Source of the DNA: a virus
Taxonomy: Duplodnaviria > Caudoviricetes
DNA length: 54,704 bases
Virus record (IMG/VR): IMGVR_UViG_3300030105_002351
Location: 1 to 54,704 of that record
Direction: 5' to 3' (one strand)
Within the stretch, counting starts at the first letter, position 1, and every line of letters starts with the position of its first letter. Positions 15,150-25,088 of this stretch are shown one piece after another. The notes beneath the pieces are model-generated. The model had not been told where the DNA came from, did not search any database, and saw nothing but the letters and a program-made list of their open reading frames with translations. The translations under genes and the position numbers were made by a program.

Positions 15150-15240
15150 CGCTGATTCCAATTTATTATTTACTAGTAAAATATATTTCATGACCGCGTA
15201 ATTACTCACTTAATTATGGACTAATTGATCCTGATTTTTA

Positions 15241-15310
15241 ATGACTGCAATCAGCTATCAGGTATAATGTTTACTAAAATGTTTACATAGTGATTTTTAT
15301 CAAGTAAAGT
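15241..15310 (+). promoter_or_regulatory. Tandem sigma70-like promoters of the early operon
   Basis: ATGACT-N16-TATAAT (15241-15268) and TTTACA-N17-TAAAGT (15282-15310). Confidence 0.5.
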
Positions 15311-15334
15311 GGCTTTGCCACTTTCGGCAAACAA

Positions 15335-15350
15335 CGACCTCGGAGGTCAA
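15335..15350 (+). promoter_or_regulatory. SD-occluding hairpin motif, copy 1
   Basis: CGACCT-CGG-AGGTCAA, 4 nt before ATG 15355. Confidence 0.75.
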
Positions 15351-15354
15351 TATT

Positions 15355-15813
15355 ATGAGTAACTATTACGAAGTAACTGCAACACTGGATGACTATGACG
15401 AAGTGCTATTCGGTAGCTATATATTGGCTGAAGCGAAGTCTGAATTGTATGTGATTAAACCTAGTGCAAAGCATGATGGATATAAGAATATCCGCATAGA
15501 AAGTCGAGATTGTCCTGATGCACCTGAATATGTTCGGGTACCCTTGCAATCAGTAAAATTAGGTGGCGAGTTTAAGCTGAAGCCTGACGCTGAGAATGTA
15601 TACACTAAAGATTATTATAATCGATATGCTACTGATCAATATGGCGATTTACGACCTAGCTATACCTGTACAAGAATATGGGATTCTAACCACGAATTGT
15701 ATCTACTGCCTAAACGGAAAGTGTATGTTTTAACATCACAATGTAAGAACAATCTAATTGGCGGAACAGGAAATTATGAATATCAGAATGCCTTATTTAA
15801 TGTAAAAACATAA
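15355..15813 (+). CDS. Hypothetical early protein
   Basis: 152 aa with GGAGG RBS. Confidence 0.75.
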   Translation: MSNYYEVTATLDDYDEVLFGSYILAEAKSELYVIKPSAKHDGYKNIRIESRDCPDAPEYVRVPLQSVKLGGEFKLKPDAENVYTKDYYNRYATDQYGDLRPSYTCTRIWDSNHELYLLPKRKVYVLTSQCKNNLIGGTGNYEYQNALFNVKT

Positions 15814-15817
15814 ATTC

Positions 15818-15873
15818 TCACTCTGACGATCTGGATTAGTGATCTAGTGAAACCGACTTAGGTCGGTAAGTGA
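15818..15873 (+). ncRNA. Hammerhead ribozyme, type I (HH1)
   Basis: Stem I TCACT/AGTGA; core CTGACGA; stem II CTGGATT/GATCTAG; GAAA; stem III CCGAC/GTCGG; predicted cleavage after GUA at 15868. Confidence 0.9.
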
Positions 15874-15897
15874 AAACTAAAACAATGAGGTTATATT

Positions 15898-16143
15898 ATG
15901 AAATTAGCAACGAAGGAAAAAACTAGGATTGATACTTTTACAAGTGAATTATTCAGAAATTATACAGGCGTAAGTGATCAATGCAGTTTTGAGGAATTAA
16001 CTGGTTTAGCAATGGATTTCATTATTACGATACATAACGATTTTGAAGGTTTAAGTATAGATTATGATGCCATTGAATATGCTCATAATTATTTAGGGCA
16101 GGAAGGTTTAACGCAGGGTGACTTGCCAAACGACCTTAATTAA
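15898..16143 (+). CDS. Hypothetical early protein flanked by two hammerheads
   Basis: 81 aa with GAGG RBS. Confidence 0.75.
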   Translation: MKLATKEKTRIDTFTSELFRNYTGVSDQCSFEELTGLAMDFIITIHNDFEGLSIDYDAIEYAHNYLGQEGLTQGDLPNDLN

Positions 16144-16145
16144 AT

Positions 16146-16202
16146 TCACTCTGACGATCTGGGTTGGTGACCTAGTGAAACCCTCGCTAAGAGGGTAAGT
16201 GA
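16146..16202 (+). ncRNA. Hammerhead ribozyme, type I (HH2)
   Basis: Stem I TCACT/AGTGA; CTGACGA; stem II CTGGGTT/GACCTAG; GAAA; stem III CCCTC/GAGGG; predicted cleavage after GUA at 16197; compensatory changes relative to HH1. Confidence 0.92.
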
Positions 16203-16218
16203 TAACTTAAATATAAAA

Positions 16219-16234
16219 CGACCTTGGAGGTCAA
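16219..16234 (+). promoter_or_regulatory. SD-occluding hairpin motif, copy 2
   Basis: CGACCT-TGG-AGGTCAA, just before ATG 16237. Confidence 0.75.
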
Positions 16235-16236
16235 AA

Positions 16237-17295
16237 ATGAATACATCACCAAAAAAAGCAACGAAGATATTGGATAGCTGTTACAAGTCCAAAACTACCG
16301 CATTCTTAATTGGCGGTACAGGAATCGGCAAGTCTGAGATTGTCAAAACATTCGCAAAGAATAAGGCGAAGGAATTGGGCTTGAAGTTTACGCAGGACTG
16401 CATTGCACCGAATGATAGTCAATTCGGATATATAGATTTCAGGCTATCTCTGATGGAATCTATCGACCTTGGCGGACTGCCTATTGTGAACGATGACGGA
16501 ACCCAGAGCCGAGCATTTTTACCGAATCTGCCGACTTCAGGACAAGGTATTCTATTCTTGGACGAATTCGCTCAAGCGAATATGTCAGTAATGGCGATAG
16601 CAGGGCAATTGCTTCATGAAAAAAGAATCGGTGAGTACATTATGCCTGAAGGATGGACTGTCATTTGCGCAGGAAATCGCGCCTCCGATAGAGCAGGATC
16701 AATCGCTATTCCATCCCATGCCATCGGGCGAGTAGTAATGATTAATGTCGATGTGTCAACGCAGGACTGGCTCGACCATGCTCAATCAATTGGAGTGCAT
16801 GAGAACGTCCTAGGGTTCATAGGATTTCAGCAACAATATCTGAACAATTTTGATCCTAAAGTAAAAGACGCTCAAGCAAGCCCTCGATCATGGGTAAGAC
16901 TGAGCGATTTATTAAATACTGATCCTGTACCTGAGATCATTCAGGACTTATCCGCAGGATGTATCGGAGAGCAGGCGACCATTGAATTCATGAATTTTAT
17001 GTCATTGAAAAACGATGTACCTGATTTAAGGGAGATTGTCGCAGGTAAGGACGTAGCAATACCCGATCAGGGAGGCATAATGTATGCCACCATATGCGCT
17101 CTAATATCAGCTATCAAGCAAGCAGGCGATTCGACTGACGAATGGTTCGACAATGCGATGGCATATATCAATCGGTTTCCTTCGCCAGAATATGGAATCT
17201 TTTTTGTTAAGACGCTATCGAGTGTTGTACCTGAGATCGTCAACACGAAAACATATGGCGATTTCAAAGTAGCGAATCAGGACTTAGAATTTTAA
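16237..17295 (+). CDS. AAA+ ATPase (MoxR/dynein-related family)
   Basis: GGTGIGKS Walker A, DLGGLP, ILFLDEF Walker B, AGNR..D, SPRSW sensor 2. Confidence 0.88.
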   Translation: MNTSPKKATKILDSCYKSKTTAFLIGGTGIGKSEIVKTFAKNKAKELGLKFTQDCIAPNDSQFGYIDFRLSLMESIDLGGLPIVNDDGTQSRAFLPNLPTSGQGILFLDEFAQANMSVMAIAGQLLHEKRIGEYIMPEGWTVICAGNRASDRAGSIAIPSHAIGRVVMINVDVSTQDWLDHAQSIGVHENVLGFIGFQQQYLNNFDPKVKDAQASPRSWVRLSDLLNTDPVPEIIQDLSAGCIGEQATIEFMNFMSLKNDVPDLREIVAGKDVAIPDQGGIMYATICALISAIKQAGDSTDEWFDNAMAYINRFPSPEYGIFFVKTLSSVVPEIVNTKTYGDFKVANQDLEF

Positions 17296-17350
17296 TTGAT
17301 AAGCGAGGCGGATATATTTTATATACCAGTAAAATATATTTTTCCTCGCA

Positions 17351-17400
17351 GGGTTCTGCAAGTGATTACTTGCACTGATGAAGCTTCAAGCAGAAAACCC
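17351..17400 (+). ncRNA. Hammerhead ribozyme, type III (HH3)
   Basis: Stem III GGGTT/AACCC; predicted cleavage after UUC at 17356; stem I TGCAAGT/ACTTGCA; core CTGATGA; short stem II GCT/AGC; GAAA. Confidence 0.85.
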
Positions 17401-17414
17401 ATCAGAAATTATTA

Positions 17415-17430
17415 TGACCTAGGAGGTCAA
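17415..17430 (+). promoter_or_regulatory. SD-occluding hairpin motif, copy 3
   Basis: TGACCT-AGG-AGGTCAA, 3 nt before ATG 17434. Confidence 0.75.
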
Positions 17431-17433
17431 AAA

Positions 17434-18396
17434 ATGAATAGTAACTCAAACGCACTTTGCGAAAATGCAACATTGGTCAGGCTGACAATGAAGCATCCTA
17501 GCGGAATTAAATGCGACAAAAAAGCGCGATCTGAATGCGCTGAAGCAAACTCGATTTATAATGAAAAACTTGTCAGCGTATCTAAGCATATATTCGGCTT
17601 TGATATTAACAAGGAATTCAGGCGAATCGAGAATGGCATTCGTAATGATTTTTATTATGCGATGACTATGCCATGGGATGACGCGACAAACGATGGCGAT
17701 AAGCAAGCGTCTGGATGGAGGCTTTGCCCGAATAAGAATCTGGATAAACTTCAAATTGAAATCAACATGGCAGAAATTGCATTCAATAAAGAACGCGACC
17801 ATGCAGTCAAAGAATTCGATGCGAGGATTGCTAGTGCAAATGTTGAATTGGGTAGCTTGTTTAATATCAGCGACTACCCAACAAGAGATGAATTTGAAGC
17901 GAAATTCATTTTTGATTTTCAATTGCAAATGGTTCCATCTTATAACCACGATATAAGAATCAATTGTTCTGATGACTTTAAAAAGAAAATCGAGGATCAG
18001 GCGATAGCAAAACAAAATGCGAATATCAAAAATTCTTATAAGCAAGTAGTAGAAGGATTGATTGATAGCGTGTCGCATATTGCTGATAAAGTCGGAGAGT
18101 ATGATCCGAAAAATAAGCAAGGCGGATTTTTTAATAAATCAAGCTTCGATAATTTGAGAAAAACTATCTCAAATATTCCTGCAATCAATTCCGATATTCT
18201 TGGCGATGATCCTGCAATCACGAAGGCGCATCAATCACTTGTCAAAGTAATGTCGGGCATTACTAATGTCGAAGGATTACGCGAGGACAATCCAACGTCT
18301 ACCCAAAACCGCGAAGATTTATCCAAGGATTTAAAAGAATCTATCAGCGATCTAAAAGGCGGATTCATGGAAAATCTATATGGGGGCAAAAAATGA
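17434..18396 (+). CDS. Helical protein, possibly DUF3150-like
   Basis: Start reassigned to ATG 17434 after GGAGG; T.PW.D....G.RL.PN and LG.LFN..DYP motifs; between the AAA and VWA genes. Confidence 0.7.
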   Translation: MNSNSNALCENATLVRLTMKHPSGIKCDKKARSECAEANSIYNEKLVSVSKHIFGFDINKEFRRIENGIRNDFYYAMTMPWDDATNDGDKQASGWRLCPNKNLDKLQIEINMAEIAFNKERDHAVKEFDARIASANVELGSLFNISDYPTRDEFEAKFIFDFQLQMVPSYNHDIRINCSDDFKKKIEDQAIAKQNANIKNSYKQVVEGLIDSVSHIADKVGEYDPKNKQGGFFNKSSFDNLRKTISNIPAINSDILGDDPAITKAHQSLVKVMSGITNVEGLREDNPTSTQNREDLSKDLKESISDLKGGFMENLYGGKK

Positions 18397-20856: not shown

Positions 20857-21107
20857 AAATTGTAGCGTGGAAGTTAGTGGCGTTTGATGAAAATGACAAT
20901 GAGATTTCGGTGGAACCAAGTAATTCTGTAGCAAGATATAGGGTATCTTTTATGCCACATGAAACTTTGCAATACGATTATGTTGTAGAAGCAAAGAACG
21001 AAGATGAAGCACAAGACAAAGCTAAAGAACAACTGATGTGGGCGATTGGTAGTGATGGTGCAAAAGATTGGGAATGTAGCAATATAGAGGAGAGTGAAGA
21101 TGAGTAA
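20853..21107 (+). CDS. Hypothetical acidic protein
   Basis: GGAGG RBS, ATGA overlap, VEAKNEDEA motif. Confidence 0.7.
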   Translation: MKIVAWKLVAFDENDNEISVEPSNSVARYRVSFMPHETLQYDYVVEAKNEDEAQDKAKEQLMWAIGSDGAKDWECSNIEESEDE

Positions 21108-21270
21108 AGATGAAGTTAGTTTACAGAGTTTTATGGACACCTTAGATGTGGAGTCAGATGATTGTACTGAAGAAAATGTTTTTCTTCTTGAAAGGTTACA
21201 AGCGTTTAAAGACGAAAGAGAAGGTAAAAAAGTCTGGAGAGAGAGATTACCACCACGATCATACGAGTAA
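21100..21270 (+). CDS. 56-aa hypothetical protein
   Basis: GGAG RBS; MSKDEVSLQSFMDTL...PPRSYE; ends just before a terminator. Confidence 0.55.
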   Translation: MSKDEVSLQSFMDTLDVESDDCTEENVFLLERLQAFKDEREGKKVWRERLPPRSYE

Positions 21271-21294
21271 TTTCTGTTAAGATATATTATAAGT

Positions 21295-21320
21295 AAGAGT
21301 GCTTCGGCACTCTTTTTTTT
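21295..21320 (+). terminator. Rho-independent terminator
   Basis: AAGAGTGC-TTCG-GCACTCTT plus T run; near-identical to the terminator at 20237. Confidence 0.88.
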
Positions 21321-21654
21321 GGGTGGGATTTATTTTTGGATGCACAGCCAAATTATCAATTACCAGTAAATAATATATTTTGATTGAGCTGCAACAAAGA
21401 TTTATGTTGTTTCAATAAAATATTTTAGATATAAAAATTTTTCCCACCAATATTTCTGATGACATAAATTTGCATCTGTTTGAGGTAATAACTAGAAATA
21501 CATCAAAAAACGAAGCCATAGAATTCGATTTAAGCGACTTTATGACCTATGCCGTTGTGATTGTATACCCAAAAAATACCCACTTTTAATGATCAATGGC
21601 AACTAGGAAATTTAAAAAACTGGTAAATAAAAAATATTTTTAATATACCAGCAA

Positions 21655-21711
21655 ACACTACATCTTGTGTCGTTTTGTAAATAAATTAAATAATAGCACT
21701 ATATGTAGTTA
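21655..21711. promoter_or_regulatory. Tandem NrdR-box-like sites
   Basis: ACACTACATCTTGTGT (21655) and GCACTATATGTAGTTA (21696) resemble the consensus acaCwAtATaTwGtgt; 41 bp apart. Confidence 0.6.
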
Positions 21712-21716
21712 TATTA

Positions 21717-21744
21717 TTGCATTCTGCAATCAGGATGTTATGAT
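21717..21744 (+). promoter_or_regulatory. sigma70-like promoter of the putative sRNA
   Basis: TTGCAT-N16-TATGAT with an extended -10 TG. Confidence 0.65.
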
Positions 21745-21749
21745 AACTG

Positions 21750-21841
21750 CAACAGAGAAAATTAAATTTCTTTGTTGACCTCCTAAGTCGAGAACCGAGG
21801 GGTGGGTTTTTTTCAATTTTAGCCTGCCCCTCTTTTCTTTT
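21750..21841 (+). ncRNA. Putative trans-acting anti-Shine-Dalgarno small RNA
   Basis: 5' hairpin 21750-21777; segment TTGACCTCCTAAGTCG matches the reverse complement of the three early RBS motifs at 14/16; terminator hairpin 21797-21832 plus U-tract; no start codon in the unit. Confidence 0.65.
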
Positions 21842-21958
21842 CAAAAAATTCTCTCAATAGTAGTAGTAATAGTAATATATCAAGTTAGTCGATGATGTAT
21901 TTCTTTTTGCTATCAGAATGCTTATAATGTATCTTGTTATTAAAAATGGATAACCGAT

Positions 21959-22333
21959 ATGTACGCTGTAATAAGACATACTTTCTCTGTAAAAATACCA
22001 GAACCAACCAGTTTAGTTAGTCGAAAGTCTACTGCTAATTGGATTCATAAGTGTTGGCTGTTTAAAAAAGAGTTAGACGCAATAACATTTGCTATTAGTT
22101 TGTTAGACGATCCATTGATTAAAGCTAATGATTATTTATTTGAAAGTGCTATCCATCAACTGAAAGAAAACAGATTTTATCAGCTAGGCAGAGAGTCTAT
22201 AGCTGTAGCAGAAGTAGAAGATTCTCCTGATATTTTATATCAAACAGATATTGAACTTACTGAAAAAGATATTGAACTTACTGAACAAGAAATTGGAGAA
22301 CTGATCAATGATAGAAAAAAACTTATTCATTAG
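21959..22333 (+). CDS. Hypothetical protein
   Basis: 124 aa; upstream TTGCTA-N17-TATCTT candidate promoter; 21-nt duplication encoding DIELTE twice. Confidence 0.7.
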   Translation: MYAVIRHTFSVKIPEPTSLVSRKSTANWIHKCWLFKKELDAITFAISLLDDPLIKANDYLFESAIHQLKENRFYQLGRESIAVAEVEDSPDILYQTDIELTEKDIELTEQEIGELINDRKKLIH

Positions 22334-22526
22334 GTGTTCGGAAGAAACTTACAAGCTAGCCCATGCTTTAGCAAAATCTGAATCTAGGTCTTTGAATAAA
22401 CAAGTTATTCACATGATCCATGCTGAATCAAAGCTAAGAAATATTAACTTACCAAAAACTAAAAAAGTAGACTCTATTGGCTTGAAAGGGCTTGTTCAAA
22501 CAAGAACACAGGGGTCATCTGACTGA
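22308..22526 (+). CDS. Arc-like ribbon-helix-helix DNA-binding protein
   Basis: LFIRCSEE.Y.....LAK.E.RSLN.Q..H.I pattern. Confidence 0.75.
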   Translation: MIEKNLFIRCSEETYKLAHALAKSESRSLNKQVIHMIHAESKLRNINLPKTKKVDSIGLKGLVQTRTQGSSD

Positions 22527-22977
22527 CATAAAAGTGCGTTAATAAAGCATTGGCACAGTCACTCATAATCTTTCTTTCTTTCTTTTCTACAATCTTAGGA
22601 TTGTTGGTCATAATATTCCAAAAAATTCTTTCATGTTCAGAGCCGCATATCTTAATTATTATTCTTTGTGGCTCTAAGAGAACTATACTTTTATCTTGAT
22701 GATTATGAAATTTACTGGTAAATAATATTTTCTGTAAATCGGGAGAACTAACGAAGGCTCCTGATTTTGATATTATGGACAGGTATTTATTGCAAGCTAA
22801 ATGTTGTCTTGGTGATAACTGTTTGTTTGATAGCATAATATCAATTATATGTTGGTCGGTAACAATGGCGCGACCTATACCTTTAACCTCAGTAATTTTT
22901 ACTGAATGTTTGTCGTGCAATCTTTTTGAACCAATGTCATTCAGCTTCATAAGCAACCGACATATCAGAATTCCCAA
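22474..22977 (-). CDS. Hypothetical protein downstream of primase-helicase
   Basis: 167-aa ORF; true start may be an internal Met. Confidence 0.6.
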   Translation of the reverse strand: MGILICRLLMKLNDIGSKRLHDKHSVKITEVKGIGRAIVTDQHIIDIMLSNKQLSPRQHLACNKYLSIISKSGAFVSSPDLQKILFTSKFHNHQDKSIVLLEPQRIIIKICGSEHERIFWNIMTNNPKIVEKKERKIMSDCANALLTHFYVSQMTPVFLFEQALSSQ

Positions 22978-24737
22978 TCATAATTGTCCTCCACTTTCTC
23001 TGCTTCCGAGTAGCGATTGTTCAATGGATTAAAAGTCAATTTACAACTTCCTGTTTTTCCCATCCAAGTCCACCGCTGTTTCCAACAGTGAACTCCAACA
23101 CTATCCTCGCCTCTATAAACTGTCAACCCCATATCTGACTTCGAGAAAAATGCCATGCTCCCAGAAATATCAACTCCTGTAACCAGATTTTTCTTACCAT
23201 CTCGCATTTGTGGTTTGTTTGGGTGGGCTATAAAAAAACATAAGACATCATATTTTTTGCAATGCAACTGAACCTTAGTAAGCATTGAAGAAATTGCATC
23301 AGTTTCTAAACCTTTATGATTACTTTCGATAAAATTATAGGGATCAATTACCAGAATCTTGCATCCGTATCGCATCACCGCTTGTGCTGATCGACTTAAA
23401 ATTGCTTCTATTGTAGGGCTTCCACCATCTTGGTAATCTTGAAATAGAAAATGCTCGGATATGAATTGTTGAGATATATCTTTTTCGTCTTGCGACATTC
23501 TCTGATTGTTACCTTCAAAAAACGGCTTCCCGATATAGCATTGTGCCAACTGAATTGCATGATAGGTAGGGGGTTTTTCAAAACTACATATATTAGCTTT
23601 CCATCCGTAATTCTTAGCGACATTGATTAATATTTGATCAATAAACGCAGATTTTCCATCTCCAGGATATCCTGTAACTACACATAAATTACCTGTTTGT
23701 AAATTAAATAACTGGTCAACAGAATCATATCCTGTAGAAACCCCTTGTGGTTTTCCCCTCTCATATAGCTTCTGAAAGTCATCTGAGTAGTAGTCTATAT
23801 TGTGTAAACCATGCAAAGGAACAGGTGTTGCAGATAATATGCTTTGGCGAACTGCCTCTGAGCCTCTTGCAACTAATAATTCGTTTGCATCCTTATACCC
23901 CTCACCCCAATCTACATTGTAGCACCTAGCTTTATCTAGCCTTCTTGACAATTCATCCGCTAAAATTTTTCCGTTGGCATCTACATCAACTGCCAAAATT
24001 ATTCGTGTAATTTTTTCAAAAACATTCCTGTCTTCCCAGATATATTTGAAGCGACCATCTTCCTTTGGATCAACTTTTAAATTTTCTGTAACTTTATTGG
24101 GTGCGCCATTTGGTACTGAGTAAACAATAACATTCTGTAATCCCTGAAATGCCTCAGTAATACTTAGAGTATCTATTTCACCTTCGGTGATAACAATTGT
24201 ATCAGCCATCGTGGGTAGACTTTCATCTATAATTCTTCCACCCCATAAACGAGTCGCATTATTATCCCACCAGAACTCCTTTTTACTACTAGCTGTACGA
24301 TATTTTACTGCAACTGTTTCGTTATTTTCAGTGAATGGAAAACCTATTACTGGTTTATTATTTTTTGTGCCAAGAATACATCCGCTTTTCTCCGCTGTTA
24401 TAATGCTTATACCTCTTTTCTCTAACCATTTTTGTGCCTCACCTTTGTCGGGGGTTGGAAACTTTATAATTTTTTTAGATTGTTGTTTTATTGGCGAGGG
24501 TATTCTGTTCATTTTCATTCCTTGAGAACGACTTATCGCACCATTAACACCGCAATGATGGCAATGGTAAATGATTGATTCGTTATTTATATTTACAGAT
24601 AGTGGTGTATCTAATTTGTTTTTCCTTTGGTCTTGGCATACAGAACAGCTAATTTTATATTGTCCTGCTGACATATGGTTGGTTTTTGAATTTGTATGAA
24701 TGTGACTTTTTATCGAGTTTTTTTCTTGACTCAACAT
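22965..24737 (-). CDS. DNA primase-helicase (T7 gp4/Twinkle-like)
   Basis: CSVC...CHHC zinc finger; ITEGEID, SVPNGA, D.D..G, KDANE Toprim motifs; TGYPGDGKS Walker A; VIDPYN; AHP.K. Confidence 0.92.
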   Translation of the reverse strand: MLSQEKNSIKSHIHTNSKTNHMSAGQYKISCSVCQDQRKNKLDTPLSVNINNESIIYHCHHCGVNGAISRSQGMKMNRIPSPIKQQSKKIIKFPTPDKGEAQKWLEKRGISIITAEKSGCILGTKNNKPVIGFPFTENNETVAVKYRTASSKKEFWWDNNATRLWGGRIIDESLPTMADTIVITEGEIDTLSITEAFQGLQNVIVYSVPNGAPNKVTENLKVDPKEDGRFKYIWEDRNVFEKITRIILAVDVDANGKILADELSRRLDKARCYNVDWGEGYKDANELLVARGSEAVRQSILSATPVPLHGLHNIDYYSDDFQKLYERGKPQGVSTGYDSVDQLFNLQTGNLCVVTGYPGDGKSAFIDQILINVAKNYGWKANICSFEKPPTYHAIQLAQCYIGKPFFEGNNQRMSQDEKDISQQFISEHFLFQDYQDGGSPTIEAILSRSAQAVMRYGCKILVIDPYNFIESNHKGLETDAISSMLTKVQLHCKKYDVLCFFIAHPNKPQMRDGKKNLVTGVDISGSMAFFSKSDMGLTVYRGEDSVGVHCWKQRWTWMGKTGSCKLTFNPLNNRYSEAEKVEDNYDWEF

Positions 24738-24833: not shown

Positions 24834-25088
24834 ATTATCGTTTAATAATTTGGCAATCTCGGTTGCGAATTTCTTTCTTGTAATAATTGGATATTCCAAC
24901 ATCTCTCTGATTGCACCAACAACCTTGTCTGGCAGAATATTGTTTCGTTCACAGATTATCTTAAACTCATCGCTGTTAAACCAATCTAAACTGTCAGTTA
25001 CGAGTAAATCATTTTTACTAGAACAATCCCTTATAGCCTGTTTGATTACAGCGTAATCAAGTCTTTTTTGTGTTGTTAATTTAGTCAT
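24828..25088 (-). CDS. Hypothetical protein
   Basis: AVI.QAI.D ... WF.S..F..IC motif; possibly leaderless. Confidence 0.7.
   Translation of the reverse strand: MTKLTTQKRLDYAVIKQAIRDCSSKNDLLVTDSLDWFNSDEFKIICERNNILPDKVVGAIREMLEYPIITRKKFATEIAKLLNDNT

Follow-up and report, generated by a model that had tools for sequence, protein, structure and literature searches.

A putative small RNA with an anti-Shine-Dalgarno seed, conserved beside a MoxR-like ATPase/VWA operon in a pelagiphage-like virus and its relatives

The c4 RNA of phages P1 and P7 pairs around the ribosome binding site (RBS) of its own mRNA and blocks translation, its recognition stretches being exposed by the fold; the sar RNA of P22, 68–69 nt long, pairs with the start region of the ant mRNA and limits translation; and the 77-nt OOP RNA of lambda, which lies by the replication/control region, is also an antisense RNA (sections of PMC12197685). 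Small RNAs (sRNAs) of the cuckoo/alpha-r14 type in Alphaproteobacteria (CcsR1-4 and NfeR1) carry C/U-rich anti-Shine-Dalgarno motifs and act on mRNA start regions (sections of PMC4615179, PMC3927594, and PMC8034643). The present analysis concerns a predicted sRNA unit at nt 21717–21842, plus strand, of an uncultured marine phage, record IMGVR_UViG_3300030105_002351; the 54.7-kb window analysed was the whole IMG/VR virus record, with an estimated completeness of 93%. The original prediction, made from sequence alone, had described the unit as a ~90-nt RNA antisense to RBSs shared by early genes.

The unit consisted of a sigma-70-type promoter, a 5′ hairpin, an open linker containing CCUCC, and a terminator-like hairpin, arranged as follows.

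21717–21722, plus strand: -35 element TTGCAT as read from the sequence, followed by a 16-nt spacer
21725–21733, plus strand: TGCAATCAG in the spacer of the sRNA promoter
21736–21744, plus strand: extended -10 element, TGn plus TATGAT, as read from the sequence
21750–21777, plus strand: 5′ hairpin of 11 bp with one G-U pair and the loop AUUAAA, beginning at the predicted transcription start, with CAACAGAGAAA (21750–21760) pairing with TTTCTTTGTTG (21767–21777)
21779–21783, plus strand: seed, the anti-Shine-Dalgarno CCTCC, inside TTGACCTCCTAAGTCG (21775–21790)
21797–21808 with 21821–21832, plus strand: terminator-like hairpin of 12 bp including G-U pairs, with a 12-nt loop
21833–21842, plus strand: U-tract after the second hairpin, TTTTCTTTTC (RNA UUUUCUUUUC)

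The promoter, 11-bp 5′ hairpin, exposed stretch, and intrinsic terminator of the original prediction were all recovered on reading the sequence. Folding of a 96-nt RNA gave two hairpins separated by an open linker, with a minimum free energy of −36 kcal/mol (z = −5.6) that none of 200 shuffled sequences matched. The seed RNA, UUGACCUCCUAAGUCG, comprised CCUCC and its flanks, the mostly unpaired stretch being ACCUCCUAAGUCG, and the mean probability of being unpaired was 0.81 for CCUCC versus 0.37 for the whole RNA. The only reading frames across the unit were of 37 amino acids (aa) on the plus strand and 52 aa on the minus strand, neither having an RBS-plus-start arrangement; as had also been predicted, no start codon (ATG, GTG, or TTG) was present 3–13 nt after the minus-strand GGAGG in the window. 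A promoter and an intrinsic terminator on one strand, together with the lack of such a reading frame, are the signals of an independent transcription unit.

The sRNA unit is real and its family is conserved. Relatives of the 124-aa gene lying downstream numbered 30 in viral contigs and at least 288 in metagenome contigs, 80 of the latter being kept. Among the 98 viral, metagenomic, and window loci having at least 650 nt upstream of this neighbour gene, a strict rule placed the unit upstream of a conserved gene of ~100–124 aa in 85, and five more carried it by eye (L027, L042, and L047–L049). All 30 viral loci possessed the unit, 29 by the scripted rule and L027 by eye, and in L149, L160, and L164, which were read only up to the CCUCC, this motif was in place after a hairpin of the L027 type. 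The units comprised 52 distinct sequences sharing almost nothing except CCUCC, which was present in every unit found. The order of elements in the relatives was a TTGCA-type -35 with a TGCwATC spacer, a -10, a 5′ hairpin, CCUCC, and a terminator, with an extra middle hairpin between CCUCC and terminator in some. Their terminators were canonical G+C-rich hairpins followed by T6–T9; T-tracts after a G+C hairpin occurred on the plus strand only, and a TTGCA-17-TAnnnT promoter was located 60–130 nt upstream. In each of six complete genomes, coding-like sites aside, a TTGCA-type -35 with a TGCwATC spacer was found only at the sRNA.

Hairpins were scored by script because the 5′ parts were too unlike to align. 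Of 47 distinct units, 34 had a contiguous stem of at least 6 bp whose end was no more than 4 nt from CCUCC, as compared with 33% of shuffled AT-rich controls, and 26 different 5′-arm sequences were present among the units. When 22 units were folded from their predicted starts, CCUCC reached an unpaired probability of 0.5 or more in 21; for four of the 22 (L015, L017, L018, and L044), the promoter picked by the script differed from the conserved one. In the nearest lineage (L095–L098), the neighbour protein was 89% identical and the DNA flanking the unit on either side was nearly identical to that of the window; the 5′ hairpin differed in sequence yet was still formed, the terminator stem of L095 had compensatory (paired) substitutions, and the seed GACCUCCUAAGUC was unchanged in L095–L098. 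A scan with the commonest terminator pattern gave 20 viral contigs, and since 18 of these, compared by contig name, were already known from the search with the neighbour gene, the unit and the 124-aa gene appear to travel together. No match was obtained against cultured phages with blastn of nt 21000–23000 or tblastn of the 124-aa protein, and a scripted scan of bases 1–50000 of Pelagibacter phage HTVC027P gave no unit of CCUCC plus terminator.

The unit is situated in a 690-nt gap between the terminator of a plus-strand operon and the 124-aa gene starting at 21959. The features of this operon, including the predicted targets of the sRNA, were as follows.

15241–15268, plus strand: promoter-like site after which the operon begins, with TGCAATCAG at 15246–15254
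15335–15357, plus strand: predicted target from the duplex scan, hairpin RBS CGACCUCGGAGGUCAA and ATG of the 152-aa gene
15355 (ATG), plus strand: first gene of the operon, encoding a 152-aa protein
Plus strand: operon gene encoding an 81-aa protein
16219–16239, plus strand: predicted target from the duplex scan, hairpin RBS CGACCUUGGAGGUCAA and ATG of the MoxR-like ATPase gene
16237 (ATG), plus strand: operon gene encoding a MoxR-like ATPase (PHROG 1297, E = 3e-72)
17415–17436, plus strand: best predicted target, hairpin RBS UGACCUAGGAGGUCAA and ATG of the 320-aa gene, with the top non-self duplex at −26.5 kcal/mol
17434 (ATG), plus strand: operon gene encoding a 320-aa protein
Plus strand: operon gene encoding a DUF2201 metallopeptidase/VWA protein (Pfam, E = 2e-27 and 3e-14)
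Plus strand: smaller genes also held by the operon
21295–21314: canonical terminator at the end of the operon

When the reverse complement of the 16-mer at 21775–21790 was sought in the window with up to three mismatches, four matches were obtained, namely the site itself and those at 15335, 16219, and 17415, against a chance expectation of 0.12; none of 100 shuffled sequences reached four. The three RBS sites each matched at 14/16 (two mismatches), as originally claimed, and each lies 2–4 nt before an ATG. The length of the match had been overstated, however. The three RBSs are near-palindromic RNA hairpins (GACCTnGGAGGTC; general form GACCUnGGAGGUC), and part of the long 14/16 match is a by-product of this dyad symmetry of the targets themselves; most relatives keep only CCUCC plus 2–5 nt. 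Against the three RBSs the unit core scored 11/13 as antisense and 10/13 as sense, values so nearly equal that its orientation rests on the flanks, promoter, and terminator and not on the match. The single substitution said to weaken self-pairing of the sRNA copy stood in part: the nearest lineage shares this base, an A in place of the G that the targets would call for, which fits the idea of an open seed, but the site departs from a perfect palindrome at two positions, not one. The exact 16-mer of the window was also present at eight loci in viral contigs (L006–L013), none homologous; in six of them (L006, L007, and L009–L012) it was an opposite-strand RBS with an ATG directly after it, and in L008 and L013 no ATG followed.

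A duplex scan of the 45-nt seed region was carried out against the 385 windows holding GGAG or GAGG. Self aside, the three RBSs ranked first to third (−26.5, −23.5, and −23.3 kcal/mol; next site −22.0) and are thus the best non-self duplex partners within the phage, as the original prediction would require. Synteny was kept in five complete relatives (G001–G005). In six complete genomes, each scored with its own seed, 38 operon RBSs with GGAGG paired at −16.2 kcal/mol versus −11.7 kcal/mol for 53 others (Mann-Whitney p = 5e-10), and operon RBSs were also more strongly embedded in hairpins (−3.9 versus −0.95, p = 5e-9). Every gene of the upstream operon in G001–G004 had an RBS of the form xxxx-C(C/U)UUGGAGG-x′x′x′x′ with covarying outer stems, and at least five contiguous pairs around the Shine-Dalgarno sequence (SD) were present in 41 of 71 distinct operon RBS contexts. 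The outer stems covaried (AAUU/AAUU, UGUC/GACA, UGAC/GUCA, and UGCC/GGUA) around an invariant CUUGGAGG, the SD of the operon RBSs being thereby placed in the loop or 3′ arm of a covarying stem. An SD within a hairpin was seen in nearly every gene of the ATPase/VWA operon in many lineages (G001–G005 and L015–L170), for example AAUUCUUGGAGGAAUU, UGUCCUUGGAGGGACA, and AAGAUGGAGGUCUU; some lineages had the whole GGAGG within the hairpin loop, and other genes of the same phages had plain sites of the (A/U)AAGGAGG type.

These stems bear on the possibility, raised with the original prediction, that the four copies are double-stranded DNA operators bound by one dimeric protein. The dyad symmetry of the sites is what such a protein would require, but the half-sites vary freely by gene and lineage without loss of pairing, some of it by G-U pairs that would be mismatches in DNA; only the central (C)UUGGAGG is fixed, and the spacing of the sites is constant relative to start codons rather than promoters. 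Since the stems covary with G-U pairs, RNA hairpins are favoured over DNA operators, which are very improbable.

Pairing was most extensive at the 320-aa gene. In L095, the antisense of the sRNA matched the start of the 320-aa homologue in two blocks, 12/13 at the RBS hairpin and 12/12 in a second block covering AAAAUGAAUAGU, including AUGAAUAGU; the duplex was predicted at −36.1 kcal/mol, as compared with −25.3 kcal/mol for the ATPase RBS and −19.0 kcal/mol or weaker for four other scored RBSs. The start of the 320-aa gene (17434) was the best local alignment to the sRNA antisense in the window, as was its homologue in G001, and the homologue ranked second in G002 and G003. Moreover, a CAT was located 5–12 nt upstream of CCUCC, that is, at start-codon distance, in 25 of 47 distinct units versus 18% expected, often in the hairpin loop by eye. 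The CAT and the two-block match fit an sRNA derived from a start region by inverted duplication, its complementarity having been maintained, but they fit a relic minus-strand RBS equally well. According to the latter explanation, the minus-strand GGAGG is or was the RBS of a short minus-strand frame or leader, and the plus-strand RNA is a cis-antisense RNA in the manner of P22 sar or type I toxin-antitoxin systems, or irrelevant. In keeping with it, the CAT places an ATG at start-codon distance after the minus-strand GGAGG in many relatives, and the minus-strand site shows the RBS flavour of its own lineage, in some lineages with the same hairpin. Yet the window itself has no start codon there, and the minus-strand frames were short and variable, of ~4 to 33 codons by eye with one of 63 aa in G004, and unlike one another beyond the first few codons of closely related lineages. 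No conserved minus-strand promoter was found, although no systematic search was made, and the only terminator signal was on the plus strand; the CAT is explained equally by complementarity to the AUG(AA) of the targets, as in L095. Given minus-strand frames that are short and variable and that the window lacks, and transcription signals confined to the plus strand, the relic RBS is the less likely origin, and an antisense RNA directed at the operon from a distance is preferred over this explanation, which is unlikely.

The flanks of the seed varied together with those of the RBSs. In lineages with CCUCC-AA in the sRNA, the RBSs read UU-GGAGG, and in those with CCUCC-AU they read AU-GGAGG; L049 had CCUCC-GAG versus CUC-GGAGG in the RBS, and the window and L095 had CCUCC-UAAGUC versus GACCUn-GGAGG. 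For the RBSs of the large genes, A at position +2 of the sRNA was accompanied by U at position -2 of the RBS in 25 of 25, and U at +2 by A at -2 in 20 of 30, the remaining 10 not covarying. This association was significant by Fisher test (7e-8 per RBS and 1.5e-4 per distinct combination), and over 14 lineages pairing with RBSs of the same phage exceeded that across lineages (2.09 versus 1.36 bp, permutation p = 3e-4), but the lineages are related and these p-values overstate the number of independent events, which correspond to about three clade-level switches. These findings amount to moderate evidence, from sequences of non-independent lineages, for a conserved single-stranded seed that is complementary to mRNAs and co-varies with them.

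The flanks also bear on the possibility that the sRNA is a general mimic of the anti-SD tail of 16S rRNA, damping all strongly SD-led translation in host or phage. CCUCC being the sole invariant block would agree with such a mimic, as would the neighbour gene, which appears leaderless where the sRNA is present and SD-led in the lineage lacking the unit. However, the co-variation of the flanks is confined to the RBSs of the upstream operon, and pairing is clearly poorer at other GGAGG-containing RBSs in these phages; a general mimic is regarded as improbable.

Taken together, the sRNA is probably, though with considerable reserve, a trans-acting antisense RNA that blocks the hairpin-presented SDs of the adjacent MoxR-ATPase/VWA operon. 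The original interpretation is plausible and is supported in part by the comparison with relatives. As suggested by the conserved signals, host RNA polymerase would start near 21750 and stop at the U-tract near 21842, giving an RNA of ~92 nt, in which the 5′ hairpin and the terminator hairpin would leave the seed UUGACCUCCUAAGUCG largely single-stranded, as indicated by folding and comparison. The seed would then pair with the SDs of the 152-aa, MoxR-like ATPase, 320-aa, and metallopeptidase/VWA genes, which are predicted to be displayed in the loop and 3′ arm of short hairpins; pairing would cover GGAGG and, at the 320-aa gene, reach towards the AUG. The duplex could block 30S binding and shut off translation of the operon, and possibly mark the duplex for cleavage. 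One base of the seed, the A where full complementarity needs G, may keep the sRNA out of the hairpin formed by the targets themselves, and the resulting A·C mismatch with the targets was conserved in the window and L095.

Several observations weigh against this mechanism. Expression of the sRNA is deduced from the promoter and terminator signals only, and in the terminator of the window the loop is long (12 nt) and the U-tract is interrupted. A simple signal scan of the window, which requires 9/12 matches for a promoter and limits terminator loops to 8 nt as compared with 12 nt here (the promoter also being split differently), listed neither the sRNA promoter nor its terminator; a promoter-like site on the minus strand, at 21844–21816, was listed. 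One lineage (L014 and L099–L103) has no unit, and coding sequence is present there instead. In the window, the third-ranked RBS is only narrowly ahead of the next site (−23.3 versus −22.0 kcal/mol), the 45-nt scan did not place the operon RBSs of G001 and G005 among its top ten duplexes, and most lineages keep only 7–10 bp of complementarity. In addition to the 10 of 30 RBSs that do not covary in the group with U at +2, L015, L044, L042, L047, and G005 pair no better with their own than with foreign RBSs, and an inverted RBS paralogue would also give lineage-specific similarity.

The DNA around the sRNA promoter and the neighbour gene contained further elements, as listed here.

21655–21711, plus strand: pair of palindrome-like boxes immediately before the -35, NrdR-box-like, a candidate operator of the sRNA promoter
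21900–21905 and 21923–21928, plus strand: promoter of the 124-aa gene (TTTCTT and TATAAT), with TGCTATCAG at 21908–21916 in the spacer
21959–22333, plus strand: conserved 124-aa gene, linked to the sRNA unit

The likeness of the boxes is to the NrdR consensus, to which 21655–21670 was the best match in the window (two mismatches), and this consensus was not enriched in the window (seven sites at up to three mismatches versus 7.7 expected). Two such palindromes were found at the same place in L015, L017, L018, L044, and L047, ~32 bp apart as compared with 41 bp in the window, and other relatives had two or three DnaA-box-like TGTGGATAA repeats there instead. TGCWATCAG occurred seven times in the window versus 1.2 expected. 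On the plus strand it was seen at 15246, 21725, and 21908, in the spacers of the promoter-like sites of the operon, the sRNA, and the 124-aa gene, and on the minus strand at 24907, 170 nt upstream of the primase gene; the 124-aa gene promoter of relatives had the inverted form, TGATAGCA...TTGCA. The positions of TGCWATCAG suggest an operator recognised by a phage regulator. Because the sRNA promoter carries operator-like elements (the TGCwATCAG spacer and the upstream palindromes), the timing of a shut-off would probably be controlled.

Across 15 sequences of the 124-aa protein (MYAVIRHT..., C-terminal ...SIH), 24 positions were invariant. The protein was assigned to no family in Pfam or PHROG, and its matches in the Atlas were viral hypothetical clusters only, at up to 0.88. 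Its AF2 model had a pLDDT of 80 with a confident core at residues 1–90; Foldseek against PDB gave no row with E ≤ 0.001, and the best Z of a wide VIA-align comparison was 4.6. In most sRNA-bearing relatives (L021–L050), the ATG of the gene was located 8–10 nt after a conserved -10 (TATACT/TATAAT) with no SD, and its mRNA therefore looks leaderless there, as far as can be read from the sequence. In the lineage without the unit (L014 and L099–L103), the gene had AAGGAG and a GTG start, a link that is anecdotal since a single lineage is involved. Between the sRNA terminator and the 124-aa gene of L021–L041 and G001–G004, repeats of ACTGGTAAATATTT and GATAGTC were observed, with a perfect palindrome, TGTTCCAnnTGGAACA, just before the 124-aa gene promoter. 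These repeats and the palindrome, which were not evident in the window, are iteron- and operator-like and possibly mark a replication origin.

With control elements this dense, the DnaA-box-like TGTGGATAA repeats or palindromes upstream and the ACTGGTAAATATTT and GATAGTC repeats downstream, and with a primase-helicase gene 1.1 kb from the unit, the transcript might instead serve a replication or regulatory region in the manner of lambda OOP/pO, through origin activation, a primer-like role, or insulation, with CCUCC as a passenger. Such a role is unlikely: it leaves unexplained the invariant unpaired CCUCC in 52 distinct sequences, the co-variation of seed and RBS flanks, and the two-block match to the start region in L095, and the window itself has no such repeats or has different ones. 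A wider form of the antisense mechanism was also considered, namely a translation switch private to the phage, in which a structured RBS address on the whole early operon (xxxx-CUUGGAGG-x′x′x′x′ or GACCUnGGAGGUC) would be read by one anti-SD RNA, the sRNA promoter would be wired to host sensors and sense the replication or dNTP state via NrdR-like or DnaA-like boxes, and the leaderless neighbour would escape. This form is rather unlikely; if true, it would represent an RNA-based early-to-middle switch in abundant SAR11-type phages, shifting the cell to SD-independent translation of mRNA.

As to the phage itself, the minus strand up to 15209 encoded structural proteins and the terminase, of which the closest named relatives were those of Phage DSL-LC04, phage 023Pt_psg01, and Pelagibacter phages HTVC027P and HTVC023P (52–59% aa identity). 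A curli-type gene cluster has been described for HTVC023P-type pelagiphages (sections of PMC9599517), and such a cluster together with the structural genes places the present phage near them; because of this cluster, the host is probably SAR11. No ATPase/VWA operon was present in the annotation of HTVC027P and 023Pt_psg01, the nearest named phages by terminase (54–56% aa), of which the unit scan covered HTVC027P only. A scan of the window for tRNA and tmRNA gave none. Rfam gave no match over the whole window at gathering score, no family on nt 15200–17500 at E up to 1, and on nt 21300–22000 (E up to 10) 11 rows, all at chance level (E = 1.8–8.5). No paper joining a pelagiphage with an sRNA was found in a literature search, and the sections of PMC9599517 and PMC12753301 contain no mention of small, antisense, or non-coding RNA.

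If the proposed pairing is correct, the unit and its targets would constitute a compact RNA switch made of one ~90-nt RNA and co-evolving short hairpin RBSs, a natural case of operon-wide orthogonal translational control, and would offer a handle on the function of a widespread phage operon for a MoxR-ATPase and a VWA-metallopeptidase. To our knowledge, almost nothing is known about the timing of gene expression in such pelagiphages.

In comparison with the described RNAs, the sRNA resembles those of the cuckoo type in having an anti-SD motif, and the likely host clade is here also alphaproteobacterial. The cuckoo RNAs are chromosomal and have CCUCCUCCC motifs, which lie in hairpin loops, usually of several hairpins, whereas the sRNA is phage-borne and has one CCUCC in a linker; with no CCUCCUCCC, a single linker CCUCC, and no such Rfam family at E up to 10, membership of cuckoo/alpha-r14 was rejected. 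Like P22 sar, the sRNA would be a phage RNA acting against an mRNA start region, but sar is transcribed from the strand opposite its target, and no gene lies opposite the present unit, the predicted targets of which are 4.3–6.4 kb away. The cis-antisense class of sar and OOP was accordingly rejected, there being no target gene on the opposite strand and the mini-frames of relatives being short and unconserved, as was a type I toxin-antitoxin system, since no conserved small peptide gene lies opposite and the frames are variable and unlike, with none in the window. With OOP the unit shares the form of a promoter-to-terminator phage RNA next to a replication/control region; OOP, however, overlaps cII in cis and leads RNase III to the 3′ part of the message, and the present unit has no overlapping gene and is complementary to start regions. 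The P1/P7 c4 RNA is similar in being an RBS-blocking phage RNA with recognition sequences exposed by the fold, although the Rfam family model C4 was not matched. Unlike c4, which is cut from an operon transcript, the sRNA unit has its own promoter and terminator, would be aimed at several RBSs that are themselves hairpins, and has a seed composed of a generic anti-SD CCUCC and lineage-specific flanks.

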